This document shows, one piece after another, positions 3,560 through 50,001 of a stretch of DNA of 51,903 nt. The notes under the pieces are model-generated. The model was not told where the DNA came from. It ran no database searches and saw only the letters and a list, made by a program, of their open reading frames with translations. The translations under genes and the position numbers were made by a program. This DNA is from Gemmatimonadota bacterium (GTDB taxonomy: Bacteria > Gemmatimonadota > Gemmatimonadetes > Gemmatimonadales > GWC2-71-9): positions 1 through 51,903 of the forward strand of contig JBEPVA010000003.1 in assembly GCA_041691295.1 (NCBI GenBank), read 5' to 3'. The stretch's first letter is position 1; the number at the start of each line of letters is the position of its first letter.

Positions 3560-3877
3560 ATGCCGACCCCGCCACAGCGCAACCACCGTATCACCCTGGA
3601 GCAAGGCATCGAATTCACCAGCCGGTTCCGCAAGGCCGCGCCCGACGCAATCAAGGCCTCGCTGTTCTGGAGCATTGGAGGACTGACGGAACTGATGGCC
3701 CAGAAGAATTGCGCGGGCCTCCGGATCTACAACGGGCTGGATGAGGCTGGCGCCCCTGTACCCGTCCTGGTGGCCGTCAATGCAAATGGCGATGACCTGA
3801 CGTCGGGAATGATTCTCGAGCTCACCCTCCCGTGCCCGCCGTTCTGCCCGCTCACCAGTCGGCTCTGCACCGGATGA
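3560..3877 (+). CDS. Conserved-looking hypothetical protein of 105 aa with a C-terminal PCPPFCP motif
   Basis: GGAG lies about 8 nt upstream of the ATG. Amino-acid composition is not GC-junk (ITLEQGIEFTSRFRKAAPDAIKASLFWSIGGLTELMAQKNCAGLRIYNGLDEAG). The stop overlaps the next ATG (ATGA at 3874-3877). Confidence 0.55.
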   Translation: MPTPPQRNHRITLEQGIEFTSRFRKAAPDAIKASLFWSIGGLTELMAQKNCAGLRIYNGLDEAGAPVPVLVAVNANGDDLTSGMILELTLPCPPFCPLTSRLCTG

Positions 3878-4533
3878 TAGCCGCAGTTTACTTCTTCGCC
3901 TATCTCTACTTCGCCTCGGAACTCCTGCCGCCATTGATGGCGCTACTCAGGCGCCCCGTGGATCGGACTCGTTCGAAAGTGGCACTCTTCTGCCTCGTGA
4001 TGTTCCTGTTCGAAATGGTGCTGATCGGCTTCCAGCACAGAGCGCCAGGGGGAAACGTCTGGCTATCCTATATCGTGCATCCGACCGAAGCAGTGCTGGT
4101 CTGCTGGATACTCAGCGATTGGCAGGTACGACCCCGGGCCCGGAGGGCCCTGGGGTATCTGGTTCCGGTCTACCTGATCACCATGACCATCCTCACTCTG
4201 ACCGAGGAACGTTCGGACACTTTCAGCCTGATCACCGGTTCGTTGTCGGGCTTCGCAATGCTCTGCCTGGTGCTCTACACCCTGGTGACCAACAGCCTCC
4301 TCGAGCGAGAAGAGCTGCGCCACCGCGACTGGTTCTGGGTCTGCCTTGGCTTCACCGTATACTTCTGTGCCGAAACGGGGGTCGAGCCGGTAGAACGTTT
4401 TCTGCTCTCGACAGATCTACCAGCGCTCATTCGGATTGCGATCGTCAAACCCGTGGTTGAGACCGTGGCCATGGTGCTGATCGCGCGGGGGATGTTCTGC
4501 CCGGTCCGACCCGCAGAGACCAGGATGGTTTGA
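3874..4533 (+). CDS. Polytopic membrane protein, a putative sensor-type membrane module
   Basis: I chose ATG at 3874 (MIAAVYFFAYLYF...), translationally coupled to the upstream gene. It has about 6 hydrophobic helices. Its C-terminus is homologous to ORF 4547..4813. Confidence 0.65.
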   Translation: MIAAVYFFAYLYFASELLPPLMALLRRPVDRTRSKVALFCLVMFLFEMVLIGFQHRAPGGNVWLSYIVHPTEAVLVCWILSDWQVRPRARRALGYLVPVYLITMTILTLTEERSDTFSLITGSLSGFAMLCLVLYTLVTNSLLEREELRHRDWFWVCLGFTVYFCAETGVEPVERFLLSTDLPALIRIAIVKPVVETVAMVLIARGMFCPVRPAETRMV

Positions 4534-4546
4534 TAGCTGCGGGCGG

Positions 4547-4813
4547 ATGATTGCCACGGCGGCCCGATTTGACTGGTTCTGGATTTGCAGTGGTTTATTG
4601 CTCTATTTCATCGGGATGATCGAGTTTGACCCGATCCTGCGACGGCTGTTCGCCGATAATCTGAACGGCGCCTTCGCGGTACGGGCCGCCAAATCGGTCT
4701 CCGATATCATCGCCATGCTCGCGATCGCCAAAGGCCTGCTGTGCACGAATCCACAACTCCGATCGCGTGGGTCTTCGTCGCCTCGCTCCTCGCGGCCGTT
4801 GCAGTTCTCATAG
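4547..4813 (+). CDS. Fragment paralogous to the last two helices of the 3874..4533 membrane protein; possibly the frame-shifted N-terminus of the downstream kinase
   Basis: RFDWFWICSGLLLYFIGMIEFDPILRRLF...IIAMLAIAKGLLC aligns with RDWFWVCLGFTVYFCAETGVEPVERFL...TVAMVLIARGMFC. The tail after 4741 overlaps the kinase ORF in another frame. Confidence 0.3.
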   Translation: MIATAARFDWFWICSGLLLYFIGMIEFDPILRRLFADNLNGAFAVRAAKSVSDIIAMLAIAKGLLCTNPQLRSRGSSSPRSSRPLQFS

Positions 4814-5511
4814 CGTTCGGCGTGGCCCTGCTGGTTTACCAGCGCCGGTTCCTGGCCATGCACCGGGAATACTCCAGCCAGCTGCTGGCGGCGCAGGATG
4901 AGGAGCGGGCCTGGGTGGCCCGCGAGGTCCACGACGACGCCCTGCAGCGGATTGCGCTGCTCGACCATGAGTGCAACCGCCTGGTGCCGATGGTCCGCCC
5001 CGACGGAGAGGGCGCGTCGGTCGACGCCATCCGCGGTGAAATCAAGGACCTGGGCGTGGTTCTCAGGGGGTTGGCTCACCGGCTGCACCCCGCTCTGCTC
5101 GACCGTGGCGGACTCTGTGTAGCATTGAGCAATCTGGGTGGGGAAATCGAGCGCAGCAGCTCGCTCCGGGTGCTGGTCACTGTTCCGGCCGCCGTACCAC
5201 GGATCACGCCGGCCCAGGCACTGGCGATGTACCGGATCGCGCAGGAGGGGCTCCGCAACGTGGTCAAGCACGCCGGCGTCAACGAGGCCCGGCTGGAACT
5301 GGCCGAGTCGGTGGAGGGATACACCCTGTCGATCCTCGACGCGGGCAAGGGGTTCGATCCTGGCGCCGCCATGAACGGCAAGCGGGGGCTGGGACTCGTC
5401 ACCATGAAGGAACGGGCCTTTCTGGCCCAGGGCCACTATTCCATGACCGCTCGACCGGACGGCGGCACCGCTGTCCGGGTTCGCTTTCCCAAGCTGGCGG
5501 AGGGCACATGA
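4741..5511 (+). CDS. Sensor histidine kinase, NarL-partner type (HisKA_3 + HATPase_c)
   Basis: One TM helix (IAWVFVASLLAAVAVLIAFGVALLVY) is followed by EERAWVAREVHDDALQRIALL (H-box) and a G-box (GLGLVTMKERA). GTG start. Confidence 0.85.
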   Translation: MHESTTPIAWVFVASLLAAVAVLIAFGVALLVYQRRFLAMHREYSSQLLAAQDEERAWVAREVHDDALQRIALLDHECNRLVPMVRPDGEGASVDAIRGEIKDLGVVLRGLAHRLHPALLDRGGLCVALSNLGGEIERSSSLRVLVTVPAAVPRITPAQALAMYRIAQEGLRNVVKHAGVNEARLELAESVEGYTLSILDAGKGFDPGAAMNGKRGLGLVTMKERAFLAQGHYSMTARPDGGTAVRVRFPKLAEGT

Positions 5512-25360: not shown

Positions 25361-26746
25361 ATGACCGCCACCACCCCAAAGCCTGTCACCATCAACCAGG
25401 ACCGGCTCGACCGCCTCACGGCCGAGCAGGAACAGCTCTTCATCTCCCGCCAGACCAACTCGGCGATGATGCATAGTCGGGCGGTTGGGAGTCTGGCCGG
25501 CGGAGTCACATCGAGCTGGCAGATCTCGGTGCCCCAGCCGATCTGGATCAGCCATGGCCGAGGCTCCCATGTCTGGGATGTCGACGGGCACGAGTATGTC
25601 GATTTTCATGGCGGTTACGGGGTCGGGCTGGCCGGGCATGCCCATCCGGCGATCGTGGCGGCGGTGAATGCCCGCATTCTGAACGGAACGCACTTCGGCC
25701 AACCCAGTCCTGATGCGCCGCTGGTGGCCGAAGAACTGGTCCGGCGGTTCGGAATGCCGCTCTGGCGGTTTTCCAATTCCGGCACCGAAGCGACGATGAA
25801 CGCCATCCACCTGGCCCGCTCAATCACCGGCCGGATGCGGATCATCAAGTTCGAGGGAGCGTATCACGGCCATCATGACTCGGTCCGGACCCGGATCTGG
25901 CATGAGCCGGTGGATACCGCCCGGGCCGATGGCCAGACCGTGCGGACCAGGGCATCGAGCGGGATTCCGAGCCCGCTGCTGGCCCTGACCGAGGCGGTGC
26001 AGTTCAACGACCTGGAGGCGGTGAGAGCGCTGTTCGAGGTGCACCGCGGGGATATTGCCTGCGTGATTCTGGAACCAATCCTGATGAACTGCGGCATCAT
26101 CTACCCCGACCCCGGATTTCTCGAAGGACTGCGAGCGCTGACCCGGAAGTATGGCGCCCTGCTGATCTATGACGAGGTCAAGACCGGGCTCACGATCCAC
26201 CCCGGTGGAGCGGTCCGCCTGTTTGGCGTCGAGCCTGACATCGTCTGCCTGGCCAAGGCGCTGGGCGGCGGCGTACCGATCGGCGCCATCGGCGGGACCA
26301 CCGAAGTCATGGAGGAGATCGTGAGCGGCCGGTATGAGCAGGTCGGCACCATGAATGGCAATCCGCTATCGATGGCGGTGGCGAAGGCGGTGCTGTACGA
26401 TGTGCTTACTCCGGAAACGTATCGCGAACTCGGGCGGCTGGAGCGCCGAATGGCTGAGGGGGCCGAGCAGATCGTGGCCCGGTTTGGGCTGCCGGCCAGG
26501 GTGGTCACGGCGGGGGCCAAGGGGTCGATCACCTACTCGGAAGTGCCGCTCAAGAACTACCGCCAGTTCCTGACCCTGGACGGCCGGTATGCCTACTGCG
26601 CCTGGCTGTTCCAGTACAATGGCGGGGTGTTCCTGCCCCCGTGGAGCAAAGGCGAGCAGTGGATGCTGTCGGTGCAGCATACCGACGCGGATGTGGACCG
26701 GTACCTGGAGACGCTGGAGCGCTTCGCTGTAGCCATCAGCCATTAG
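25361..26746 (+). CDS. Class III PLP-dependent aminotransferase (glutamate-1-semialdehyde aminomutase-like)
   Basis: DVDGHEYVDFHGGYGVGLAGHAHPAIVAAV, NSGTEATMNAIHLAR, YDEVKTG and LAKALGGGVPIGA. Confidence 0.9.
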   Translation: MTATTPKPVTINQDRLDRLTAEQEQLFISRQTNSAMMHSRAVGSLAGGVTSSWQISVPQPIWISHGRGSHVWDVDGHEYVDFHGGYGVGLAGHAHPAIVAAVNARILNGTHFGQPSPDAPLVAEELVRRFGMPLWRFSNSGTEATMNAIHLARSITGRMRIIKFEGAYHGHHDSVRTRIWHEPVDTARADGQTVRTRASSGIPSPLLALTEAVQFNDLEAVRALFEVHRGDIACVILEPILMNCGIIYPDPGFLEGLRALTRKYGALLIYDEVKTGLTIHPGGAVRLFGVEPDIVCLAKALGGGVPIGAIGGTTEVMEEIVSGRYEQVGTMNGNPLSMAVAKAVLYDVLTPETYRELGRLERRMAEGAEQIVARFGLPARVVTAGAKGSITYSEVPLKNYRQFLTLDGRYAYCAWLFQYNGGVFLPPWSKGEQWMLSVQHTDADVDRYLETLERFAVAISH

Positions 26747-26747
26747 C

Positions 26748-26817
26748 CGAGGGTCGAGGGTCGACGGTCGAGGGTCGAGGGTCGAGGGTCGAGGGTCGAG
26801 GGTCGAGGGTCGAGGGT
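26748..26817. repeat. Tandem heptamer array of 10 units
   Basis: cgagggt x10, with the third unit cgacggt. Starts 2 nt after the aminotransferase stop and ends 5 nt before minigene A. Confidence 0.9.
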
Positions 26818-26822
26818 CGCGA

Positions 26823-27029
26823 ATGTCACATCCGGACCCCCAAACCGCGATCTATTGTGAGACCCTAGCACGGAGGTGCTTCACGAGCCCGAAGAAAAAC
26901 GGCAGCCAGAAGGACCTCAAGCCCCGCGGCATCAAGAGCGGCAGCCAGGAGGCCGCCAGGGTCAAGGGCGGCAAGGTCGCGATGCAGGACTTCCATTTCG
27001 TCAAGAAGACTGACAAGGCGAGCGCTTGA
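26823..27029 (+). CDS. Minigene A: KDLKPR...VKGG leader plus Hcp-like core (KVAMQDFHFVKKTDKASA)
   Basis: Track ORF of 68 aa. The C-terminal 45 aa are paralogous to minigenes B and C at both nucleotide and protein level. The N-terminus is atypical and lacks MTARKK, so the start is uncertain. Confidence 0.5.
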   Translation: MSHPDPQTAIYCETLARRCFTSPKKNGSQKDLKPRGIKSGSQEAARVKGGKVAMQDFHFVKKTDKASA

Positions 27030-27060
27030 CCGGCGCCGTCGACACCCACAGGAGCGTCAG

Positions 27061-27225
27061 ATGACTGCCAGGAAGAAGACCACCAGCGCCGAGGACCTGA
27101 AGCCGCGCGGCATCAAGAGTGGCAGCAAGGAAGCCGGATCGATCAAGGGCGGCGTCAAGCCGGTCGACAAGTCGAGCGCCAAGCTGCATTTGGCCTGCGC
27201 GACGGGCGAACACATCAAGGAGTGA
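27061..27225 (+). CDS. Minigene B, 54 aa: MTARKKTTSAEDLKPRGIKSGSKEAGSIKGG leader plus core VKPVDKSSAKLHLACATGEHIKE
   Basis: Hand translation. AGGAG lies 7 nt upstream of the ATG (acaggagcgtcagATG). Leader paralogous to A, C and E. The core resembles the Hcp segment TKYIDKSTPNLMMACSSGKHY. Confidence 0.7.
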   Translation: MTARKKTTSAEDLKPRGIKSGSKEAGSIKGGVKPVDKSSAKLHLACATGEHIKE

Positions 27226-27260
27226 CTTGATCCACGGGTAAACCGCAACAGGAGATTCAG

Positions 27261-27419
27261 ATGACCGCCAGGAAGAAGACCGCCAAGGTCAAGGACCTGA
27301 AGCCGCGCGGCATCAAGAGCGGCAGCAGGGAAGCCTCGAAGGTGAAGGGCGGCAAGGTCGCCATGCAGGATTTCCACATCGTCAAGACGGTCGATAAGGC
27401 GAGCGCCAAACTCTTCTAG
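27261..27419 (+). CDS. Minigene C, 52 aa: MTARKKTAKVKDLKPRGIKSGSREASKVKGG leader plus core KVAMQDFHIVKTVDKASAKLF
   Basis: Hand translation with an AGGAG Shine-Dalgarno sequence (acaggagattcagATG). The core resembles the Hcp segment GKVNVQDLSFTKYIDKSTPNL. Confidence 0.7.
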   Translation: MTARKKTAKVKDLKPRGIKSGSREASKVKGGKVAMQDFHIVKTVDKASAKLF

Positions 27420-27431
27420 TGAGCCGAGGCA

Positions 27432-27530
27432 TTGGAACTGAAGCCGCGAGGCGTGAATGGCAGCAAGGCCAGCGCCCACGATATCAGCTTCACCCATAGC
27501 GTCGACAAGTCGAGCGCTAAGTTGTTCTAG
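27432..27530 (+). pseudogene. Unit D: leader-truncated copy (ELKPRGVNGSKASAHDISFTHSVDKSSAKLF)
   Basis: In frame with C but separated from it by TAG TGA. Only a TTG start with poor SD spacing is available, and there is no KGG motif. Probably a decayed unit. Confidence 0.3.
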
Positions 27531-27569
27531 GCAGGCTGTCCCACTGGTGCACCCCTACAGGAGCGTCAC

Positions 27570-27743
27570 ATGGTTGCCAAGAAGAAGTCGGCCAAAGCCA
27601 AAGCCCGGGACTTGAAGCCCAAAGCCGTCAAGAGTGACAACGCGGCCGCGGTGAAGGGTGGGATTGGGAGCCAGTCAACCGGGGCCGGCGCCGGCAAAGT
27701 GACGTTCAACCCGTTCTCCATCACCCGCAAGATCGACAAGTAA
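27570..27743 (+). CDS. Minigene E, 57 aa: MVAKKKSAKAKARDLKPKAVKSDNAAAVKGG leader plus core IGSQSTGAGAGKVTFNPFSITRKIDK
   Basis: Hand translation with an AGGAG Shine-Dalgarno sequence (acaggagcgtcacATG, nearly identical to the one upstream of B). The core resembles the Hcp segment GGGAGKVNVQDLSFTKYIDK. Confidence 0.7.
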   Translation: MVAKKKSAKAKARDLKPKAVKSDNAAAVKGGIGSQSTGAGAGKVTFNPFSITRKIDK

Positions 27744-27810
27744 GCAGGATTCTTCGATCAGGAGTTCCATCCTTGGGTGGGCAGCTCCCCGCTGGCTGAG
27801 GACTCGCGGA

Positions 27811-27842
27811 GCGGACGGGCGGACGGGCGGACGGGCGGACGC
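27811..27842. repeat. Tandem octamer array of 4 units, followed at 27905-27920 by tctgtct cctgtct
   Basis: gcggacgg x3 plus gcggacgc, located downstream of minigene E. Confidence 0.8.
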
Positions 27843-27982
27843 AAGGTGCCGCCTGCGGCGCCCGCTTCCTATTTTCTGGATCCGCAGTGCTAGCGGGTCC
27901 ATTCTTCTGTCTCCTGTCTCCAGTTTTTCGCTATCTTGCGAAAGACTCCGGCGTTGTGCCGAGTCGTCACACGGAATTGGAC

Positions 27983-30460
27983 ATGACCGACGAAATCGCA
28001 TCCCCTCCGGTTCCCCCCCGCGACAGCGAAGCCGACATCACCAGCCAGCTGGCGGAAGGGTTCTTCAAGACCTTCGCGCCCCGGCTCACCGGCCGGGTCC
28101 GGTCCAAGGCGCTGCAGGACGCCATCGGCGACTCCTGCTCGACAGCCGAGAATCCGACCTGGCTCGCGATCGCCAGCCAGCCACCGATCGAGACCAGGGC
28201 TGCGACTATTCGTGGCCAGGCCCACTCTGCTGCCGGGCTCAAGGCCATCATCAGTTCGTTCCGCTACGCCCTGCCCCGTCTGGGGCCGAGTGCCACGTAC
28301 CACAACTTCCTCGAGGTCAACCAGAAGGACGGATTCGACTGCCAGAGCTGCGCCTGGCCCTCGCCGGATGGCAAGCGGCACCAGTTCGAATTCTGCGAGA
28401 GCGGCGCCAAGGCCATGGCCAGCGAAGGATCGAAGCACACCATCGGGGCCGACTTCTTCCGGAAGTGGAGCATCGAGCAGCTGAGCGGTCAGTCGGACAC
28501 CTGGCTGGAAAGCCAGGGGCGGCTGACCGAACCGATGGTTCGCCGGGCCGGCAGCAGCCACTACGAACCGATCGGCTGGGATGACGCCTTGGCCCTGATC
28601 GGGAAGGAGCTCAACAGCCTCCTGTCGCCGGATTCGGCGGCCTTTTACACCTCGGGGCGGGCCAGCAATGAAGCGGCCTTTCTCTGGCAGCTGTTTGCCC
28701 GGCAGTACGGCACCAACAACCTGCCCGACTGCTCCAACATGTGCCACGAATCCTCCGGCACCGCGCTGGTCCAGAGCCTGGGCATCGGCAAGGGAACCGT
28801 CGTGCTGGAGGATTTCGAGCAGACCGACCTGATCATCCTGGTCGGGCAGAACCCCGGTACCAACCACCCGCGGATGCTGACTTCGCTGGAGCATGCCAAG
28901 AAGCACGGGGCCAAGATCCTCGCTATCAATCCGATGCGGGAAACCGGGTTCATGCGGTTTACCGACCCCAACCCGGACGAGTTCCCCACCCCATTCCATT
29001 TCGCGGCCCATATCCTGGGACCCGGAGTCCCGCTGGCGGATCTGCACCTGCCGGTCCGGATCAATGGCGACATTGCGGTGATCAAGGGACTGATGAAGGT
29101 GATGCTCGCCGAGGATAACCGGCGCGGCGGAGTGATTGACCAGCAGTTCATCGCCGACTCGACCAACGGCTGGGACGCGGTCAAGGCCGACCTCGAAGCC
29201 ACCGGTTGGGACGAGATCGTCGAGGGGTCGGGCCTCACCCGGGCCGAGATCGAAGCGGCCGGAATGATGGCGGCCAGTGCCAAGCGGATGATCTGCTGCT
29301 GGGCCATGGGACTGACCCAGCACAAGAATGCGGTCGCCACCATCCGGACCATGGTCAACATGCTGTTGATGGGCGGGCACATCGGGCGGCCGGGCGCCGG
29401 CACCTGCTGCGTCCGCGGCCACTCCAACGTCCAGGGCGACCGGACCATGGGCATCTGGGAGCGCCCCGGCGAACCGTTTCTCCAGGCGCTCGACAAGGAG
29501 TTCGGCTTCCGGTCGCCGAGGCATTTCGGCAAGGATACCGTTGACACCATTGCGGCGATGCATGACGGGAGTATCGAGGTCTTCATCGGGCTGGGCGGCA
29601 ACTTCCTGGCCTCGGCACCCGATACCGTCACCACCGCCTCGGCGCTGAGCCACTGCCGGCTGACCGCCCAGATCGCGACCAAGCTCAACCGTGGGCACCT
29701 GATCACGGGAGAAACCGCGCTGCTGCTGCCCTGCCTGGGCCGCTCCGAACAGGATGCCGGCGGGGTGGTGACCGTCGAGGACTCGATGGGGATCATCAGC
29801 GCTTCCAGGGGCAAGCGCGCGCCGGCGGGCCCCGAGCTGCGGAGCGAAGTGGGAATCATCGCCGGGATGGCGACCGCGACACTCAAGGGCCGTACCAACA
29901 TTGACTGGCAGGGACTGGCGACCGATCACAGCCGGATCCGGGACCATATCAGCCGGGTGGTGCCGGGGTTCGAGAACTACAACAGCCGGCTGGACCAACC
30001 CTTCTACCTCCCCAACCCCGCTCGGCAGCGGCGGTTCGTGACTGAGAGCAAAAAGGCCGAATTTTTCGTAGCGCCGATCGCGGTGCACCCGGTGAGCAGC
30101 GAACGGTTTCTGATGACAACGGTCCGCAGCCACGACCAGTTCAATACCACCATCTACGCCCTCAACGACCGATATCGCGGCATCTACGGCGGGCGGAGGG
30201 TGGTGTTCATGAATGAGGATGATGCCAGGGAAAAGGGCTGGGCCACCGGCCAGCACGTCGATATCACCAGTCACTTCGAGGACGAGCGGCGAGTCGCGCG
30301 GCACTTCCAGGTGGTGGTCTACACCATCCCGAGGCGATGCGTGGCCACCTACTTCCCCGAGGCCAATGTGCTGGTCCCGATCGGCAGCGTGGCCGACGGG
30401 AGCAATACGCCTACCTACAAGTCGATCATGGTATCGCTGGCCGAAAGCGACGCGCGGTAA
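27983..30460 (+). CDS. FdhF/YdeP-family molybdopterin oxidoreductase
   Basis: I chose ATG at 27983 (MTDEIASPP). Contains NQKDGFDCQSCAWPSPDGKRHQFEFCESGAKAMASE, CSNMCHESSG and a molybdopterin-binding C-terminus. Confidence 0.9.
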   Translation: MTDEIASPPVPPRDSEADITSQLAEGFFKTFAPRLTGRVRSKALQDAIGDSCSTAENPTWLAIASQPPIETRAATIRGQAHSAAGLKAIISSFRYALPRLGPSATYHNFLEVNQKDGFDCQSCAWPSPDGKRHQFEFCESGAKAMASEGSKHTIGADFFRKWSIEQLSGQSDTWLESQGRLTEPMVRRAGSSHYEPIGWDDALALIGKELNSLLSPDSAAFYTSGRASNEAAFLWQLFARQYGTNNLPDCSNMCHESSGTALVQSLGIGKGTVVLEDFEQTDLIILVGQNPGTNHPRMLTSLEHAKKHGAKILAINPMRETGFMRFTDPNPDEFPTPFHFAAHILGPGVPLADLHLPVRINGDIAVIKGLMKVMLAEDNRRGGVIDQQFIADSTNGWDAVKADLEATGWDEIVEGSGLTRAEIEAAGMMAASAKRMICCWAMGLTQHKNAVATIRTMVNMLLMGGHIGRPGAGTCCVRGHSNVQGDRTMGIWERPGEPFLQALDKEFGFRSPRHFGKDTVDTIAAMHDGSIEVFIGLGGNFLASAPDTVTTASALSHCRLTAQIATKLNRGHLITGETALLLPCLGRSEQDAGGVVTVEDSMGIISASRGKRAPAGPELRSEVGIIAGMATATLKGRTNIDWQGLATDHSRIRDHISRVVPGFENYNSRLDQPFYLPNPARQRRFVTESKKAEFFVAPIAVHPVSSERFLMTTVRSHDQFNTTIYALNDRYRGIYGGRRVVFMNEDDAREKGWATGQHVDITSHFEDERRVARHFQVVVYTIPRRCVATYFPEANVLVPIGSVADGSNTPTYKSIMVSLAESDAR

Positions 30461-30520
30461 ACCTCAAGCCATCTGCCGTAGACGCCGACGGCGGGCGGCT
30501 GGACCTGCCGGCGCTGGAGG

Positions 30521-31306
30521 CTAGGGCTCACCGCCATCGTGGAGCGCCTCGAGTTTCCGCTCTAGGCCTTCTCGCCGTGACCGCATGACCTTGAGTCGGG
30601 CACCATCGGTCAGCACGACCACCCCATCGCCTCGAAGCGCCGCCTCGACCGAACGTACCCGGCTCAGGTTCACGATGGTGGACCGGTGGATCCTGATGAA
30701 CCGGTCCGGATCCAGGCGCCGCTCCAGCGAAGCCAGCGTTTCCCGGAGCAGGTGCGCCGTGGACCGCACATGCAGCAGCGCGTAGTAGTCAGCCCCCTCG
30801 ATCCAGTCGACCTCCCCGCTCGGCACCACGATGACCTGCCCCACCTCGCGCACGATCAACCGGCCCACTCCCCTGGGACGGCCCGGCAATCCCTCAAGCA
30901 ACGCCGAGATTCTGGACTGGGCGCTCGCTGCATCCCGGTCACGCCGTTGCGCCCTGACCCGTTCGACCGCCTGGGCCAGCCGTTCCGGTGACACCGGCTT
31001 GAGCAGGTAGTCGAGCGCGTTGACCTCGAAGGCTCGGATGGCGTGGGCATCGAAGGCCGTCACGAAGACCACCAGCGGCAATTGACTACCGGAGAGAGCG
31101 TCGATCAGGTCGAAGCCCGACATTCCGGGCATCTGGATGTCGACGAACAGCACATCCACTTCGAGCTGGTGCAGGCCGGTGAGCGCCGACATCCCGTCGG
31201 CGAAGGTGCCGACGATGGTCAGGCCCGGCAGGCGCTCCAGCAACTCGACCAGCCCCTCCCGGGCCAACGGCTCGTCATCCACCACCACGGCGCGCAGGGA
31301 GTTCAT
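30521..31306 (-). CDS. LytTR-family response regulator (REC + LytTR DNA-binding domain)
   Basis: AVVVDDEPLAREGL...DVLFVDIQMPGMSGFDLI and IVVPSGEVDWIEGADYYALLHV...FIRIHRSTIVNLSRV. ATGA overlap with the kinase stop. Confidence 0.9.
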   Translation of the reverse strand: MNSLRAVVVDDEPLAREGLVELLERLPGLTIVGTFADGMSALTGLHQLEVDVLFVDIQMPGMSGFDLIDALSGSQLPLVVFVTAFDAHAIRAFEVNALDYLLKPVSPERLAQAVERVRAQRRDRDAASAQSRISALLEGLPGRPRGVGRLIVREVGQVIVVPSGEVDWIEGADYYALLHVRSTAHLLRETLASLERRLDPDRFIRIHRSTIVNLSRVRSVEAALRGDGVVVLTDGARLKVMRSRREGLERKLEALHDGGEP

Positions 31307-32412
31307 CGCGACTCCGTGGTGGACGCCGACGGCTGGCGCGGGAGCTCGACCACGACGATGGCACCGGCCCCCGACGGGCCGGGTCGCAGGGACAGCGATG
31401 CGCGCTCCCCATACAGGGCAGTTAGGCGCGCCTTGGTGTGCCCGAGTCCGACACCATCCCGCCGTTTGCCCTCGGCGAGCCCTGCCCCATCGTTCGCGAT
31501 CGTGATCCGCACACCGTCGGTCAGGGCCTCGACCCCGATCTCAAGGTGCAGTGGCCGGGTGGCATCGGTAAAGCCGTGGCGGATGGCATTCTCGACGAGG
31601 GGCTGGAGCAGGAAGGATGGAACGATGGCAGAGTGCAGGGCTTCCGGCGCGTCGAGTCGGACCACCAGTCGATCGGCATATCTGACCTGTTCGATCTCGA
31701 GGTAGTGCCTCACCGCCGCCAGTTCAGATCCGAGCGTCACCAATTGGGCTCGGGAGGACTCCAGCGAATGGCGCAGCAAACCCGCCAGGCGGGTGACCAT
31801 CTGCTCGACATCACCGGTGAGGCCCCGCCGGGCCAGCACGGCAATGCTGTTCAGGGAGTTGAACAGGAAATGCGGATCGAGCTGGGCTCGGAGGGTTTCG
31901 AGCTGGGCATCGGCCAGCTGGGCGTTGAGCCGGGCAGCAGTCACCTCCAGCAGCCGGGCCCGGCGAAGGCTCAGGGAGCTGTATACCACTCCCACGAACG
32001 CGATCCCCAGCAACAGGTCCGTCAGGCCGTTGTGCAGCAGCATATGCAGCCAGGTCTGCGGCAGCGTTCCGCCGAACCCGGCCCAGTGGACCGGCGCGGC
32101 GACCAGCGGGACCAAGCCCACTGGAAGCAGCATGAGAAGAATCAGCTTCCATGCGGTTGAGCCACGGGCCGCTGGATGATCAACCACCCCTGCCATCAGC
32201 GGAACCAGCGCCGCACCCCAGAGCAGCCAGCCCAGCCAGATGGCCGCCTCGGTCGGGAGCAGGTGGCCCCACGGCGTCGCTACCGCCGCCGCCGCGAACT
32301 GCTGCACCATCGTCACAGTTCGGGCGACGGTAACGGCGAGCGCCACTGCCCCGAGGATCACCGGAATCGAGACGCTGCTGGCCGGGCGCTGTGGTAATTC
32401 CAGAATCGTCAT
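31303..32412 (-). CDS. LytS/YehU-type sensor histidine kinase (intramembrane N-terminus + His_kinase PF06580 + HATPase)
   Basis: About 5 TM helices with no evident periplasmic domain, then LRAQLDPHFLFNSLNSIAVL and LLQPLVENAIRHG. Confidence 0.85.
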   Translation of the reverse strand: MTILELPQRPASSVSIPVILGAVALAVTVARTVTMVQQFAAAAVATPWGHLLPTEAAIWLGWLLWGAALVPLMAGVVDHPAARGSTAWKLILLMLLPVGLVPLVAAPVHWAGFGGTLPQTWLHMLLHNGLTDLLLGIAFVGVVYSSLSLRRARLLEVTAARLNAQLADAQLETLRAQLDPHFLFNSLNSIAVLARRGLTGDVEQMVTRLAGLLRHSLESSRAQLVTLGSELAAVRHYLEIEQVRYADRLVVRLDAPEALHSAIVPSFLLQPLVENAIRHGFTDATRPLHLEIGVEALTDGVRITIANDGAGLAEGKRRDGVGLGHTKARLTALYGERASLSLRPGPSGAGAIVVVELPRQPSASTTESR

Positions 32413-32445
32413 CCGGTGAAAGTAGCGTGGCGGAACCCCGCGGCG

Positions 32446-34875
32446 TCAGCCACCGCTCCGCAGCGCAACGATGGGGTCGATCCGTGTGGCCCGCCATGCC
32501 GGAACCATGGCACCGATAACCCCCGTGAGTACGGCGCCGAGCACCACCAGGCCCAGCACCCCGAGGTTGAACGGTCCGACACCGTAGAGCAGTCCTGCCA
32601 GCAGGCGGGCGCTCGACAGGGTCCCAGCCAGACCGATCAGGATGCTGGCGCCCACCACCAGCAGCGATTCCCGTCCCACCAGCTTCACGATTTCGCCCGG
32701 CTTGGCACCGAGCGCGATTCGAACCGCCAGCTCCCGTTCCCGCTGGGTGACCAGGAACGAGAGCACGGCGTAGGTGCCCGCCAGGGCCAGTAGCAGGGCC
32801 GCAAGCGCGTAGCCGGACATCAGGCGGGTGGTGATCGCCATCCGCGCGCCGGCATCACGCACGATGGCATCGAGGGTGAACTGGTTGTAGATCGCTATGT
32901 CGGGGGCGGCCTCGGTGATGATCCGGCGAATTGGCCCCGCCAGGGCCAGCGGATCGCCGGAGGCCCGGGCCACGATGGTGATTTCGGTGGCAAAGCCCAT
33001 CGAGGCCCAGCTGCCGAGCCCAGGCAGATACAGCTCGGGGCGCGGCTCATCGGTCAAACTGCGATTTCTGGCATCCGCCACCACCGCCACGATCGGCATC
33101 CACGGCGAGACCGGTCCGAATCGCAACCGCCGGCCCAGCGGGTCCTCACCATCAGGAAAGAGCCGGCGCGCCAGCCCCTCACTGATGACCACCGGAGTGA
33201 TCCGGGCGCTTGCATCATCGTCACCGAACAGCCGGCCGTGGCGCAATCCGATCTGCATCGCCGCGAAATAGTCGTGACTCACCACCCGATAGTCCGCTAT
33301 CGGGTCAGTTCCGTCCGCCTTGAACGGACGGCCTTCGACCGCCATGGCCAGATCCTCTCTCCCCGGGGTAAGTGGCAGCGCGTTCACCAGACCGGCGGCC
33401 GTCACTCCAGGGAGCTGACCGACGGCGGTGATGAGCCGCCGGAGCAATGATTCCCGCGCCGTCCGGTCCCGTAGCGTGGCGGTGGGCAGGTTGATCCTGA
33501 GGCTGAGCGCCGACCCTGGATTGAATCCGAGCGGCACCCGCTGCACCTCGCGGGCGGATGCGAGCAGAAGACCGGAGCCATGCAGCAGGAGGACGGCGAG
33601 TCCAATCTGGGCGGCAGCAAGGATCCGACGGAGGGCATTGGCGGCGGGCGTTCCGGCGGCCCTGGCTCGCAGACTGCTGGCCGGGTCCCGCCCCGCGGCC
33701 ACGGCCACGGGAAGTGCCCCGACGACGGCGCCGACCACGAGTACGGCGACCGCCGCCGCGACCAGCGTCCTGATCCCGAGCAGCGGTGCCGCGCTGGCGA
33801 TGCCGGCCGGTAATAGTGTGACCATCAGCTTCGATCCAAGCCCGGCGATGGCCAGGCCGATTCCGGCGCCGGCCGCACTCAGGATGATGCCCTCGAGCAA
33901 CGCACCTCGAATGAGCCTGCCTCGGGTGGCACCAAGCGCGGCGCGCACCGCCAGCTCCTCACCACGGACGATGACCCCTGCCAGCTGGAGGTTAGCCACA
34001 TTGGCGCAGGTCAGCAGCAGCAGCAGCAGGACGCCGACAAGCAGCAGCGCCACGACCGGCCGGACATCGCCGACCACCGAATCAGCCAGCGGGTGGACCT
34101 GGGCCAGGTATCCCGATGGATCCAGCACCGACCCGGCGTGCGGGCCGGGAAATTCGCGGCCTACCGCCCGAACTGGCAGGGTCAGATCCCGCCGGGCCGC
34201 CTCGAGACCGGTTCCGGCCTTGAGTCGACCTACGACAGAATACCCATGGTTGTACGGATTGAGGCCGGCGGGATCGAGCCGCAGTGGCTCCCAGGCCGCG
34301 ATCTGGCGCGATCCAAACGTGACGCCCGGTGGCAGCACCCCAACGATCGTGCTGGGTTCTCCCTCGAGGTTCACGACCGTGCCGATCACCGCAGGATCCG
34401 CATTGAACACCGACCGCCAGAGCTGGTCGGACAGGACCAGCAGACGTGGACCGTTCGGCAGGTCCTCACCGGCCGTGAAGCGGCGTCCGAGGGCCGGCGC
34501 GACCCGGAGTACATCGAACAGACTGGCACTGACCTGGGCCACGATGAGCCGGCGCGATCCGTCACCCCGGATCAGGTTGGTGAAGCCGGTTCCCCAGGCC
34601 GCGACCGCGCTGAGGCTGTGACCGTCGCTGACCAGTCGGCGGTACCCGACGTCGGAGAAGCCCAGTTCCGGAAGACCAGGCGCCGGAACGGTCTGGGTGA
34701 TCCGGACCAGCCGCCCCGACTCCGGATAGGGCAGTGGCCGGAGAAGCACGGCATCGACCACGGCAAACACAGCCAATGCTGAGCCGATCCCGAGACCGAG
34801 AGTCAGGGCAATGACGAGCGAATACACCGGTCGCAGCCGGAGTCGCCTGATGGCAAACCAGAGATCGTGCCCCAC
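32446..34875 (-). CDS. ADOP-type duplicated MacB/FtsX-family ABC transporter permease, with no cognate ATPase gene adjacent
   Basis: MGHDLWFAIRRLRLRPVYSLVIALTLGLGIG, two large periplasmic domains each followed by an FtsX 3-helix module, and C-terminal WRATRIDPIVALRSG. Confidence 0.9.
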   Translation of the reverse strand: MGHDLWFAIRRLRLRPVYSLVIALTLGLGIGSALAVFAVVDAVLLRPLPYPESGRLVRITQTVPAPGLPELGFSDVGYRRLVSDGHSLSAVAAWGTGFTNLIRGDGSRRLIVAQVSASLFDVLRVAPALGRRFTAGEDLPNGPRLLVLSDQLWRSVFNADPAVIGTVVNLEGEPSTIVGVLPPGVTFGSRQIAAWEPLRLDPAGLNPYNHGYSVVGRLKAGTGLEAARRDLTLPVRAVGREFPGPHAGSVLDPSGYLAQVHPLADSVVGDVRPVVALLLVGVLLLLLLTCANVANLQLAGVIVRGEELAVRAALGATRGRLIRGALLEGIILSAAGAGIGLAIAGLGSKLMVTLLPAGIASAAPLLGIRTLVAAAVAVLVVGAVVGALPVAVAAGRDPASSLRARAAGTPAANALRRILAAAQIGLAVLLLHGSGLLLASAREVQRVPLGFNPGSALSLRINLPTATLRDRTARESLLRRLITAVGQLPGVTAAGLVNALPLTPGREDLAMAVEGRPFKADGTDPIADYRVVSHDYFAAMQIGLRHGRLFGDDDASARITPVVISEGLARRLFPDGEDPLGRRLRFGPVSPWMPIVAVVADARNRSLTDEPRPELYLPGLGSWASMGFATEITIVARASGDPLALAGPIRRIITEAAPDIAIYNQFTLDAIVRDAGARMAITTRLMSGYALAALLLALAGTYAVLSFLVTQRERELAVRIALGAKPGEIVKLVGRESLLVVGASILIGLAGTLSSARLLAGLLYGVGPFNLGVLGLVVLGAVLTGVIGAMVPAWRATRIDPIVALRSGG

Positions 34876-34878
34876 CGC

Positions 34879-35250
34879 TCAGCTCGGCGGGGATGCCCGG
34901 CGACGGCCTGCCACCGAACCGGCATTCTCGCCGAAGGTGAACGGGCCAGTGACCGAATCGGCGCGGAAGAGGAGGTCGTAGTGGATGACATCGCCGGGCG
35001 CGGTATTGTCGAGCACCAGCCGGTTCCCCTTCCTGAGGGTTGGCCCGACCGGCGAGATGTGATCGCCGATCCTCAGGGTTACCGCGGTGCTGTCGTGGAG
35101 AATGGCAATCTCGAGGCTGCCTTCCATGGTGCCGCCACCGTAGGTGATTTCGAGGTCGTACGTCCCGGAGCGGATCGGCGGGGTGGCCTGAGCGCCGAGT
35201 GCCGGCGCCGCGGTGAGGGCGGCGATAAGGAATGGCAGGACACGAGTCAC
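34879..35250 (-). CDS. Small secreted beta-rich protein; first gene of the permease/kinase/regulator operon
   Basis: I chose GTG at 35250, preceded by GGAGG and a 5-nt spacer. Signal peptide TRVLPFLIAALTAAPALGAQA. The stop lies 3 nt before the permease ATG. Confidence 0.6.
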   Translation of the reverse strand: MTRVLPFLIAALTAAPALGAQATPPIRSGTYDLEITYGGGTMEGSLEIAILHDSTAVTLRIGDHISPVGPTLRKGNRLVLDNTAPGDVIHYDLLFRADSVTGPFTFGENAGSVAGRRRASPPS

Positions 35251-35520
35251 GATTTCCTCCACGAGGGATTGGGGTCCTGGTCGCCAGACGGCCCACCCTC
35301 GAGAAAGCTTCGACCAGGCAGCCAAACCGACTTCTCGAGCAGCCAATCGGCTTCGACATCGGCTCCTGCCGACCTGGCCATGTCACATCCCGGTCGGCGT
35401 TTTTGATCTCAGGTGAACCCCACCGTCTACCTCAACCGGAGCGAACCATGTCGACCTCGTAGAAGACCAGGATGGGTACCCCCAAGGACCTCAAGCCCCG
35501 CAAGACGATCAGGGGAAACC

Positions 35521-35679
35521 ATGACCATGGCCAAGCGGGACAAGGACTGGAGCCGGGCGGTGGAGGCGGACGAGGCGGCGGCGGTGCGGGGTGGGGATGG
35601 GCAGACCAAGAAGCCGCCGAAGGATCGCCAGCCGCTGATGGTGTACAAGCTCGAGGATATCCAGATCAGCGGCACCTGA
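35521..35679 (+). CDS. Minigene F, 52 aa: MTMAKRDKDWSRAVEADEAAAVRGG leader plus core DGQTKKPPKDRQPLMVYKLEDIQISGT
   Basis: Hand translation. The ...AAAVRGG leader end is present. The core resembles the Hcp strand YLIITLKEVLVSS. A KDLKPRK leader piece lies just upstream in another frame (ATG 35472). Confidence 0.5.
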   Translation: MTMAKRDKDWSRAVEADEAAAVRGGDGQTKKPPKDRQPLMVYKLEDIQISGT

Positions 35680-35856: not shown

Positions 35857-36033
35857 ATGGCCAAGGCGAAGAAGAGCAGCAGATCCAAGGATTTGGAGAG
35901 AGTCAAGACCGTTTCATCAGATCAGGCCAGATCCGTACGGGGCGGCGACAAAGCCGTCGTTCACAGGGTGGGGGGCAAGTCGCAGCTGGAGTACGTCCGG
36001 GTGGTCATGAAGGAAGTGATCATCACCAGCTGA
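35857..36033 (+). CDS. Minigene G, 58 aa: MAKAKKSSRSKDLERVKTVSSDQARSVRGG leader plus core DKAVVHRVGGKSQLEYVRVVMKEVIITS
   Basis: GGAGG lies 5 nt upstream of the ATG at 35857, which is internal to track ORF 35800..36033. The core closely resembles the Hcp segment KAGGENQVEYLIITLKEVLVSS. Confidence 0.65.
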   Translation: MAKAKKSSRSKDLERVKTVSSDQARSVRGGDKAVVHRVGGKSQLEYVRVVMKEVIITS

Positions 36034-47846: not shown

Positions 47847-48662
47847 TCATTTCCCCGCCCCCATCCGCTCCAGCAAATCCTGCTTCCGATTCCTCGATAC
47901 CGCCACTCTCGTATCGTTGGTGAGCACCACCTCGAGGCCCCGCAACGCCTTGCGGCGGACCTCCACCACCCGCTCGAGATTGATGATGGCCGAGCGATGG
48001 ACCCGGAGGAAGCGACTCGGATCGAGCCGTGACTCGAGGGCCGCGAGGGATTCGCGCATCACATGGCTGGCGCTGCCCACGTGTAGTTCGGCGCAGTAGT
48101 CTCGCGCGCCGATCCAGTCGATGGCGGCCACATCGACCACCACCGACCGGGCGCCGGTCGAGACCATGAGGCGTTCGGGGTATGCGGACCGGGACTCCAT
48201 ATCGGTTCGGCCCCGCGAACTCACCTCGTCCAGCAGCGCCCGGAGCCGCTGCTCCAATTGCTCGGCCCTGCTCCGGCTCGATTCGCCGCTCCGAACCTGA
48301 CGGACCCGGTCGAGGGCCCGGCGGAACCGGTCCTCTGCCACGGGCTTTAGCAGGTAGTCGAGCGCCTGGACTTCAAAGGCGTTGACCGCGAACTCGTCAT
48401 AGGCGGTCACGAAGACGACAGCCGGCAGCCATCCGCCTGACTCCTTCATCACCTCGCGCAGCACGCCGAATCCATCAAGCCGGGGCATCTGGACATCGAG
48501 AAAGACGAGGTCCGGAGTGAGCCGGACGATCTCCCGGACCGCATCGCGGCCGCTCAGCGCTTCCGCCACCACCTCGACATCATGGTGGGGCCGAAGCAAC
48601 GCCCGCAGCCCGGCATTGGCCAATGGTTCATCGTCGACCAGCAGGGCCCGGATGGTGGCCAT
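47847..48662 (-). CDS. LytTR-family response regulator, second copy
   Basis: I chose ATG at 48662 (MATIRALLVDDEPLANAGL). Contains DLVFLDVQMPRLDGF and VVVDVAAIDWIGARDYCAELHV...FLRVHRSAIINLERV. Confidence 0.85.
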   Translation of the reverse strand: MATIRALLVDDEPLANAGLRALLRPHHDVEVVAEALSGRDAVREIVRLTPDLVFLDVQMPRLDGFGVLREVMKESGGWLPAVVFVTAYDEFAVNAFEVQALDYLLKPVAEDRFRRALDRVRQVRSGESSRSRAEQLEQRLRALLDEVSSRGRTDMESRSAYPERLMVSTGARSVVVDVAAIDWIGARDYCAELHVGSASHVMRESLAALESRLDPSRFLRVHRSAIINLERVVEVRRKALRGLEVVLTNDTRVAVSRNRKQDLLERMGAGK

Positions 48663-48663
48663 C

Positions 48664-49821
48664 TCAGTACACCTTCGGCCCATCATTCGGCGGCCGGGCC
48701 GGGGTGCGGTGCAGCGGGAGCGTGACCCTGGCGATCACACCTGACGGCGAGTCGTTGGCCAGCGACAACATGGCGGACTCACCATAGATGTGGCTCAGTC
48801 GCGACCGGGTGTTGTTGAGCCCGACCCCGCCGTACCGTTCGACGGACCAGGCGCCCGGCAGGGAGGGACCCTCGTTGCGAACCTCGAGCAGGAGTTGGTC
48901 GCCGCGGGCAGCGGCGGAGATGGTCAGGCGGCCAGCGGCGTCATCGGCACCGAGACCGTGACGGATGGCGTTCTCGACCAGCGGCTGCAGGATGAGATTC
49001 GGTACCAGCGCGGAAGTGAGCTCCTCGGGCACCGACACGGTGACGCTCAAGCGGTGACTGAATCGGATCCGTTCGATGGCCAGGTAGCGCTCCAGGAAGG
49101 CCAGCTCTTCTGCTAGCGTGATTTCGGGTTCGGCAGTGCCGTGGAGCAGGTGGCGGAGGATGTCCCCCAGTTGGGTAAGGACCGCGATGGCGCCGGGTCC
49201 GTTCTCGGTCCGGACCAGGGCCACGGCCGCGTTGAGTGTATTGAAGAGAAAATGCGGGTGCAGCTGACTCTGCAGCGCGTCCAGTCGGGCGGCGGTCAGC
49301 CGCTGGGACAGCTCGGCGGCCTCGAGCCGGGCCTCCTGGTAGCGGCGGTAGTAGTCGACCCCATAGTACGTGCCGACCACGGTCCAGTACATCAGGAGAT
49401 TGATCGGCAGCCAGTCGAACAGGGAGACGGAGTAGTAGTCAGGGAGGGAGAGCGACGAGGGCCGGACCTCGAAGTACCAGCCGGCCGAGGCGTGCACGGC
49501 GGTGTGAACCATCCCGACCAGCACGCTGAGCACCAGGTGGGTCGCGAGTGGTCCAGGCGCCGGCGGCCAGGAGAGCCGCACCCGGCGGCAGATCCAGAAG
49601 ATCAGCGGCGAGAGCAGGGCCCAGAGCATCCAGCCGGGAAATGCCGCGCCCAGCGCTCGGCCCCATGAGGCAGGCATGCCGGAGATCCGCCAGCCGGCGT
49701 AGTAGTCGACCGCGTCGGCCAGTGACAGCACCGTCCAGAGCGCCACACTGCACCACCAGAGGATCCGCCCGCTGCGGCGGCCCAGCTGAAGCTGGGCTTC
49801 TTCCGGTTCTACAGCCACCAT
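48664..49821 (-). CDS. LytS/YehU-type sensor histidine kinase, second copy
   Basis: I chose ATG at 49821 (MVAVEPEEAQL...). TM helices, then LQSQLHPHFLFNTLNAAVAL and ILQPLVENAIRHG. The track ORF extends to 50706 through junk antisense to the next gene. Confidence 0.8.
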   Translation of the reverse strand: MVAVEPEEAQLQLGRRSGRILWWCSVALWTVLSLADAVDYYAGWRISGMPASWGRALGAAFPGWMLWALLSPLIFWICRRVRLSWPPAPGPLATHLVLSVLVGMVHTAVHASAGWYFEVRPSSLSLPDYYSVSLFDWLPINLLMYWTVVGTYYGVDYYRRYQEARLEAAELSQRLTAARLDALQSQLHPHFLFNTLNAAVALVRTENGPGAIAVLTQLGDILRHLLHGTAEPEITLAEELAFLERYLAIERIRFSHRLSVTVSVPEELTSALVPNLILQPLVENAIRHGLGADDAAGRLTISAAARGDQLLLEVRNEGPSLPGAWSVERYGGVGLNNTRSRLSHIYGESAMLSLANDSPSGVIARVTLPLHRTPARPPNDGPKVY

Positions 49822-50001
49822 CGCTGGCTCCTTGAGGACTTCGGCCGAGAGCAATGATCGCCGGTTTTCGGACCGGTTGATAGCTCCGCCGGCCCGATGG
49901 CCGGCCCATTGGCTGCAGCGATGTACCACTGGCTGCACTGGTCCCAAACCGGGCCCGGTGAAGCGGCAATTTCGGCTCTGACCCATGATGTCGGAGCCTG
50001 A

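Follow-up and report, generated by a model that had tools for sequence, protein, structure and literature searches.

A 51,903-nt stretch of DNA from a Gemmatimonadota bacterium (contig JBEPVA010000003.1 of assembly GCA_041691295.1; hereafter, the window) carries seven very short genes, arranged in two clusters, in which a Lys/Arg-rich leader ending in Gly-Gly (GG) is joined to a copy of a small segment of Hcp, the type VI secretion (T6SS) tube protein. Our reading of the sequences, which we put at somewhat better than even, is that all seven units are GG-leader precursor peptides, that is, substrates of a peptidase-containing ATP-binding cassette (ABC) exporter that would cut them after the GG.

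The first cluster consists of five tandem units (A-E) at 26.8-27.75 kb of the + strand, and direct translation reproduced the minigenes that the initial annotation had read there, both in position and in sequence. A six-frame motif scan revealed a second + strand cluster at 35.47-36.03 kb, containing units F and G and a leader remnant, outside the segment originally delimited (26823-27743; Table 1). Each intact unit has its own Shine-Dalgarno site, a leader of ~30 aa rich in Lys and Arg and a core of 18-28 aa. Units B, C and E were also correctly described as starting with an ATG preceded by AGGAG in a conserved box; the spacing is 6 nt in each case and the box reads ACAGGAGnnTCAs. The G+C content of the + frames is 0.78-0.92 at third codon positions (GC3) and 0.40-0.51 at second positions (GC2), with similar values for the neighboring aminotransferase gene in this window of 65% GC. 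A 197-aa open reading frame (ORF) that the leader remnant opens was rejected as spurious.

As judged from their sequences, the cores are copies of one or two secondary-structure elements of Hcp, and the match is statistically supported. PF05638 (T6SS_HCP), against which the initial annotation had suggested checking the peptides, was the sole Pfam match of each of A-E, with E values of 2e-4 to 2e-2 and scores of 15.5-22.0 bits (below the cut-off of 23.5), covering profile positions 37-78 of 129. TIGR03344 matched only B (14.7 bits vs a cut-off of 58.9). Using a custom hidden Markov model (HMM) built from 62 Hcps of soil phyla, with significance assessed by 2,000 shuffles per peptide, we found that A-E outscored all of the shuffles (2,000 of 2,000). 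Pfam gave no match for F and G, for which the evidence of Hcp origin comes from relatives, from the custom HMM and from the shuffles; in a test of the cores only, the observed score was reached by 0 of 2,000 shuffles for G and by 3 of 2,000 for F. Mapped onto Hcp (~162 positions), the units cover positions 45-65 (E), 49-71 (A, C and D), 59-82 (B) and 87-109 (G and F), in agreement with the earlier description of the cores as staggered, overlapping views of one stretch of the protein, and the array appears to be a mixed set tiling the conserved middle of Hcp. Where they align, 17 of 17 residues of A and 20 of 22 of C are identical to a Terriglobales Hcp. The soil-phyla Hcp subfamily aligns to Hcp1 of Pseudomonas aeruginosa (PDB 1Y12) with E = 3e-42, and phmmer searches of the window peptides against PDB sequences gave no match. 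A DNA pattern scan for KVxMQDFH across genomes returned mostly full-length Hcp genes with nearly core-like sequence, from Acidobacteriota, Gemmatimonadetes, Planctomycetes, Verrucomicrobia and Actinomycetes, together with chance matches in Streptococcus and Prevotella; the scan helped in constructing the HMM and was ill suited to locating minigenes.

The leaders, in turn, have a highly conserved end. In the window they close on E-A-x-x-V/I-K/R-G-G, and in A, B, C, E, F and G the V/I-K/R-G-G lies 25-31 residues from the start and abuts the Hcp-like core. Among 26 basic leaders, both glycines (-1 and -2), K/R at -3 and V/I at -4 were each found in 26 of 26, Ala at -7 in 23 and Glu at -8 in 13, with V, L or I at -12 in 17 or at -14 in 9, a conservation pattern that echoes the classical double-glycine E-L-x-x-I-x-G-G. 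Direct reading of the window leaders revealed neither a hydrophobic stretch nor an RR motif of the kind found in Sec and Tat signals.

The same cores are found behind other leaders. Identical core classes occurred behind at least four leader types, namely basic, acidic (EDLDVPEEEAEDVKGG), canonical double-glycine (LSDEELNNVAGG, with the pattern LSxxELxxVxGG in relatives) and full Nif11. One relative of the same core class (P0134) has a Nif11 leader scoring 48.6 bits against TIGR03798 (cut-off 32.3), and another (P0168) has an E-type core behind a canonical double-glycine leader and adjoins an NHLP exporter. The basic leader also precedes a non-Hcp amphipathic core (P0220 in locus L169), and leader-core-leader-core was found within single ORFs (P0019, P0025 and P0083). 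Both the shared cores and the retention of E(-8), A(-7), V/I(-4), K/R and GG support the initial proposal of a double-glycine-type leader, and we treat the cationic leader of the window as a putative, undescribed variant of it.

An array of this family also stands beside a complete exporter. Loci L166-L168 (GCA_037025705.1 and relatives) contain a four-gene operon encoding an HlyD adaptor, a C39-peptidase ABC protein, a second ABC protein and a cyclic-nucleotide-binding protein, and immediately after it come six GG-leader minigenes. The first three genes of the operon match the models of the NHLP bacteriocin export system, namely TIGR03794 (309 bits; cut-off 156), TIGR03796 (1036; 853) and TIGR03797 (798; 709). 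Three of the six minigenes in L166 have significant Hcp cores: the first core, NTGSQSTGAGAGKVTFNPFSITRKIDKSSPLF, is nearly identical to that of window unit E, and peptides 2 and 3 correspond to Hcp α1-β4 and β6. Assignment of peptide 4 to β5 was not supported by the Hcp HMM test, in which peptides 4-6 were not Hcp-like. In a further locus (L171), gene fragments with similarity to an ABC ATPase and to the C39 N-terminus of TIGR03796 are found at a distance of 2.6-4.8 kb from a basic-leader array; this link is weaker because the assembly has broken genes. With one array behind an NHLP-type HlyD/C39-ABC/ABC operon and one relative passing the Nif11 model, the resemblance to the NHLP and Nif11 families that the initial annotation had pointed out is supported. 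Separately, an MbnB/TglH-like gene (PF05114) is paired with an HvfC_N gene and accompanied by DoxX at 3571-5318 of loci L162 and L163. An array of two Hcp-fragment units, with β1-β2 and β3 cores, is found ~5 kb away; the pair could be there by coincidence or could be a tailoring system.

Homologous minigenes were expected in other genomes, and profile searches found them in large numbers. A HMMER search of 1.84 billion representatives with a profile built from units A-E returned 90 proteins at E ≤1e-3, ~55 of which were 48-75-aa peptides with a leader, V-x-G-G and a core, ending at the same Hcp position. Further searches gave 155 matches with a family profile and 68 with a basic-leader profile. 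The Hcp HMM matched 128 of 190 retrieved small proteins, with peptides ending 0-1 residues past the match, and core classes among these matches were loop/β3 (n = 102), β4-β5 (n = 20), α1 (n = 9) and β6 (n = 2), a distribution biased by the seed sequences used. The β4-β5 class was strikingly uniform, with ~20 relatives reading ...VKGG followed by RKAGKGQQEFLVVKMNDVIIT. Other parts of Hcp also serve as cores, including β6 (P0083 and peptide 3 of L166), α1-β4 (L123 and peptide 2 of L166) and β1-β2 (L162, where ...VAAG is followed by ASLDAFLKIDGIDGESADTKHKDEIHLE). The family is found in Gemmatimonadota, Acidobacteriota, Actinomycetota, Alphaproteobacteria (Dongia) and other soil lineages, and some of its members bear JGI names such as 'type VI protein secretion system component Hcp', 'bacteriocin-like protein' and 'ribosomally synthesized peptide with nif11-like leader'. 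A metagenome scan for the junction GGKVxMQDFH mainly recovered genuine Hcps, in which GG closes the Gly loop, and few minigenes (L126/132/138/141, L137, L158 and L161). A word-index homologue search with peptide C alone recovered nothing beyond the peptides of the window itself, an exact look-up showed that peptide C is not on record, and the family alignments had no conserved stretch of 7-10 columns.

Hcp fragments were also seen in proteins of other forms. Two long forms, P0231 (a basic leader with the whole C-terminal half of Hcp; 111 aa) and P0182 (Hcp without β1-β2, starting at ...RGG; 119 aa), may be intermediate stages through which the minigenes arose. Planctomycete-like secreted proteins (P0003-P0007 and P0033-P0041) repeat the Hcp fragment: those of 500-1150 aa have 5-11 tandem copies of GGGGAGKAVFQDLSVTKYIDKATPKLL-type units, and those of 120-210 aa have an N-terminal LEGRQLFSA and β3 joined directly to a β5-like RIKLTDVLVSS. 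Judged from their sequences, such proteins are a further route, independent of the minigenes, by which Hcp segments would be displayed extracellularly. A Blastocatellia metagenome-assembled genome (L102, 2379-3417 of the - strand) encodes small proteins made of L-K/R-V-K-S/T-x-V-K-A-G-G repeats, one of which ends in KVTMQDFHFTS, and these may form a different repeated-leader peptide family sharing the Hcp β3 core. The HlyD-like look of an ORF in L102 was not confirmed by Pfam.

The minigenes are conserved under purifying selection. Two loci (L001 and L002), one peptide of which is named as from a Gemmatimonadota metagenome-assembled genome, are syntenic with the window, having in order an aminotransferase gene, minigenes, a molybdopterin oxidoreductase gene, one minigene and a LytTR regulator gene. 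Their minigenes are A', a D' that is intact, E' and an F-like unit; neither locus has a B or C core, and the window carries ~310 bp extra relative to L001 in the B/C region. Compared with L001, the ratio of nonsynonymous to synonymous substitution rates (dN/dS) was 0.30 for A and 0.31 for E at a dS of ~0.35; the flanking aminotransferase gene had the same dS and a dN/dS of 0.05. Synonymous changes were in excess in A and E (P = 9e-4) and the indels in E were in frame, in line with the codon-aware constraint anticipated in the initial annotation.

Two units of the window are damaged. Unit D had been taken to be leaderless, a description that its orthologue in L001/L002 (P0008) corrects: because P0008 is an intact 55-aa peptide with a full leader, D, which has lost ~13 leader codons, reads GS in place of GG and has neither an ATG nor a ribosome-binding site, is a decayed copy and not leaderless by design. 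The original translation of unit A stands, but its conserved leader starts at the ACG at 26883, where two relatives have ATG. The 21-aa extension from there back to the ATG at 26823 has a low GC3 (0.67) and 1-nt indels relative to the relatives and is therefore not conserved coding sequence. Unit A may have fallen silent recently, or its translation may begin at the ATG at 26823.

A third related locus (L170) helps to explain the present layout. It holds a single three-unit array between an orthologous aminotransferase gene (87% identical) and a DUF2779 gene (57% identical), and the block at 27750-35470 of the window (encoding a molybdopterin oxidoreductase, a LytTR regulator and LytS-type kinase, a MacB/FtsX permease and a 155-aa ORF) is absent, leaving aminotransferase, minigenes and DUF2779 contiguous. 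The block was either inserted in the lineage of the window or deleted from L170. Because L170 has a single array, the two window clusters, now ~7.7 kb apart, probably derive from one array that was split by unrelated genes. The array turns over quickly, with units gained, lost and decaying between close relatives.

If the units are precursors for export, translation from the Shine-Dalgarno site of each would give a peptide of 50-60 aa, of which the Lys/Arg-rich N-terminal ~30 residues, free of a hydrophobic Sec-type segment, would be the leader. This leader would be recognized by a C39-domain ABC exporter (NHLP/'NHLM' type) with an HlyD adaptor, encoded elsewhere in the genome, and the exporter would cut after the GG, releasing the 18-28-aa core outside the cell. 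By analogy with canonical GG leaders, we infer that the basic leader of the window is cleaved and exported in the same way.

A number of observations weigh against this proposal. The 52-kb window contains no C39-peptidase ABC exporter, HlyD adaptor, immunity gene or TIGR03794/03796/03797 trio. At E ≤10, the window peptides matched none of TIGR01847, PF10439, TIGR03798 and other curated leader models, so the comparison with double-glycine models suggested in the initial annotation came back negative, and the window leaders carry a strong positive charge (net +5 to +9), unlike the acidic leaders of the classical GG type. The sole basic-leader array found near a C39/ABC gene (L171) has that gene in pieces, and most family members are found on short contigs or amid unrelated genes. 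In the β3 class, the GG could in principle be partly a relic of the Gly loop of Hcp itself. As the initial annotation had stated, the window also has no full-length hcp (a six-frame Hcp HMM scan recovered A, B and C only) and no T6SS gene among its Pfam-annotated large ORFs. Because the window has no exporter, the leader is cationic, and expression and cleavage are predictions, we hold the export reading no higher than modestly above even.

Some of these points would suit cytoplasmic proteins, in which the basic N-terminus is simply a tail and the strands act as dominant-negative or capping pieces that tune the assembly of the cell's own or an incoming Hcp tube: no exporter is present in the window, the curated leader models do not recognize the basic leader and the long forms P0231 and P0182 have the same basic N-terminus. 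We consider this unlikely, since the same cores with the same boundaries occur behind canonical GG and Nif11 leaders and with an NHLP exporter, V/I-K/R-G-G is invariant before every core class, even where Hcp has no glycines, and the basic leader also carries a non-Hcp core. The Nif11 and NHLP links could also be taken to indicate precursors of peptides that are made by ribosomes and modified post-translationally (RiPPs), with tailoring enzymes encoded elsewhere, a modified active product and an Hcp likeness that is only ancestral. RiPP enzymes commonly act on peptides with such leaders, other multi-precursor RiPP systems likewise have precursors dispersed at a distance from any partner genes, and one array has an MbnB/HvfC-type gene pair ~5 kb away. 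However, no tailoring enzyme adjoins the arrays in the window, L166-L168, L170 or L171, the cores do not have the Cys/Ser/Thr-rich pattern of the lanthipeptide or thiazole classes, and they stay near genuine Hcp sequence, with A matching a real Hcp at 17 of 18 residues and C at 17 of 21, which argues for constraint on the unmodified sequence. We rate RiPP precursors slightly less probable still than cytoplasmic fragments.

The decay of D, the missing ATG of A, the leader remnant before F and the variable array content between close relatives might also be expected of gene debris, that is, functionless, decaying fragments of duplicated hcp genes. This is very improbable given that each intact unit has its own ribosome-binding site and leader, that dN/dS is ~0.3 with indels in frame, that precise core boundaries recur in >100 peptides from several phyla and that some arrays are linked to exporters. 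Finally, an uninterrupted 146-aa ORF runs antisense to units B-D (27057-27497, - strand), which raises the idea that this is the real gene and the + strand peptides are its mirror artefacts. Long antisense frames are common in DNA of 65% GC, and homologues, ribosome-binding sites and GC3 all fit the + frames; because L001 lacks ~310 bp here and the ORF is not conserved, we take it to be a high-GC artefact and give the antisense gene almost no weight.

Returning to the exported precursors, what the released peptides would do is a matter for more tentative interpretation. They may act via mimicry of Hcp and not as generic membrane-active bacteriocins, a view that we regard as possible yet clearly short of even, for example with cores binding to Hcp partner surfaces or seeding mis-assembly of Hcp in T6SS-armed neighbors. 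The close, maintained likeness to Hcp, the boundaries at secondary-structure elements and the mixed sets make mimicry attractive. A more specific version, in which soil bacteria export copies of single Hcp strands and of its helix to act on Hcp itself, seems unlikely to us; here the strand mimics could cap or mis-seed Hcp and so disarm T6SS-bearing neighbors, or could serve as false 'Hcp' cues by which the reactions of neighbors to an attack are manipulated. In a related reading, Hcp may be exported piecewise, with the pieces reassociating outside the cell, which is suggested by the occurrence of all parts of Hcp as cores: β1-β2 (L162), loop-β3, α1-β4, β4-β5 and β6.

If mimicry is true, the peptides would link diffusible bacteriocins with the contact-dependent T6SS, two major systems of bacterial competition, and would provide natural templates for peptides that interfere with T6SS assembly; if the cores act on Hcp itself, they would be a new interbacterial weapon or defense delivered by an ordinary bacteriocin exporter. 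Even as ordinary bacteriocins, they would represent a new cationic leader type and a case of protein fragments recruited as peptide cargo, and would correct a recurrent annotation error: the minigenes are missed by most gene callers and annotation pipelines, and members that are called are mislabeled 'T6SS component Hcp'.

Several other features were noted around the array. A class-III aminotransferase gene (window 25361-26746) lies directly upstream of it in the window, L001, L002 and L170, an association that may be mere synteny because these loci are from close relatives. Perfect tandem repeats flank the first cluster at 26748-26819 (CGAGGGT ×10.3, directly after the aminotransferase stop codon) and 27811-27841 (GCGGACGG ×3.9, 3' of unit E); the CGAGGGT 7-mer array is present, interrupted, in L001 and L002, and its GAGGG units resemble Shine-Dalgarno sites. 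Two pairs of a LytTR response regulator and a PF06580 histidine kinase are found at 30521-32412 and 47847-50706 (- strand). LytTR regulators control GG-peptide loci in Firmicutes; the kinases of the window pairs are of the LytS type. A scan of the window for sigma-70 promoters found none, Rfam had no match in it, PADLOC found nothing, and PHROGs gave one weak match only, to an unnamed 164-position family.

Table 1 Units and associated features of the two minigene clusters, with positions in the window
Feature	Position	Strand	Leader	Core	Corresponding Hcp segment	Remarks
Unit A	26883..27029	+	(T)SPKKNGSQKDLKPRGIKSGSQEAARVKGG	KVAMQDFHFVKKTDKASA	β3 and turn	Start codon ACG; GGAGG at 26872-26876, 6 nt upstream
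Unit B	27061..27225	+	MTARKKTTSAEDLKPRGIKSGSKEAGSIKGG	VKPVDKSSAKLHLACATGEHIKE	End of β3 and helix α1	
Unit C	27261..27419	+	MTARKKTAKVKDLKPRGIKSGSREASKVKGG	KVAMQDFHIVKTVDKASAKLF	β3 and start of α1	
Unit D	27432..27530	+		KASAHDISFTHSVDKSSAKLF (readable core)	β3	Decayed copy
Unit E	27570..27743	+	MVAKKKSAKAKARDLKPKAVKSDNAAAVKGG	IGSQSTGAGAGKVTFNPFSITRKIDK	Gly loop and β3	
Terminator-like hairpin, then T-rich tract	27877..27901	+				3' of first cluster; consensus scan only
Leader remnant	35472..35520	+	MGTPKDLKPRKTIRGNH (contains KDLKPRK)			Not in the frame of unit F; comparable leader MAKSKKTKGGSVRDLKPRKLMDSG... in L170
Unit F	35521..35679	+	MTMAKRDKDWSRAVEADEAAAVRGG	DGQTKKPPKDRQPLMVYKLEDIQISGT	β4-β5 turn and β5	AGGGGA 5 nt before ATG; orthologue F' is P0215 in L001
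Unit G	35857..36033	+	MAKAKKSSRSKDLERVKTVSSDQARSVRGG	DKAVVHRVGGKSQLEYVRVVMKEVIITS	β4-β5	GGAGGA 4 nt before ATG

The initial annotation knew of no earlier description of such a family, and a full-text literature search likewise found none of GG-leader peptides with Hcp-fragment cores; Hcp likewise did not turn up in a term check of a survey on class II microcins from 2025 (PMC12219008). The closest parallels are the NHLP/Nif11 'microcin' systems, which share short tandem precursors, a conserved leader ending in GG and variable cores, and to which the family is tied by a relative with a genuine Nif11 leader (P0134) and by the array behind a full TIGR03794/03796/03797 exporter. In those systems, however, it is the leader that resembles a protein (nitrile hydratase alpha or Nif11) and the cores are unrelated to proteins, whereas here the core is a piece of a known protein; the window leader is also short and cationic, matches neither TIGR03793 nor TIGR03798 and has no exporter in the window. 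Class II bacteriocins, microcins and pheromones with GG leaders (TIGR01847 and PF10439) have in common with the minigenes a ~30-aa GG leader, no Sec-type segment, small cationic cores and several precursors per locus; the residues typical of their leaders (hydrophobic at -4, -7 and -12, Glu at -8) recur in part in the basic leaders. Differences are the abundance of Lys and Arg in the window leaders, the lack of an evident immunity gene, and cores that are Hcp segments, not Gly-rich or hydrophobic sequences.

Compared with Hcp/TssD itself (PF05638 and TIGR03344; 1Y12), the cores are near-identical to segments of soil-phyla Hcps, but they comprise 18-28 of ~160 residues, score below the Pfam cut-off and have no T6SS gene nearby; with so small a part of the fold, no peptide could form the β-barrel or hexamer. 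Prochlorosin-type systems have many precursors with one leader and divergent cores, partly remote from the processing and export genes, and turn over rapidly; their cores are Cys/Ser/Thr-rich lanthipeptide substrates of a LanM enzyme. The minigenes resemble them in the shared leader, the divergent cores and the rapid turnover of content between relatives, and differ in having no LanM-type enzyme or Cys/Ser/Thr-rich residue pattern. Set against these systems, the export logic, with its double-glycine and Nif11 leaders and peptidase-ABC exporters, is known, whereas the cationic leader and the widespread cargo class, consisting of precisely cut pieces of a structural secretion protein, appear to be new.

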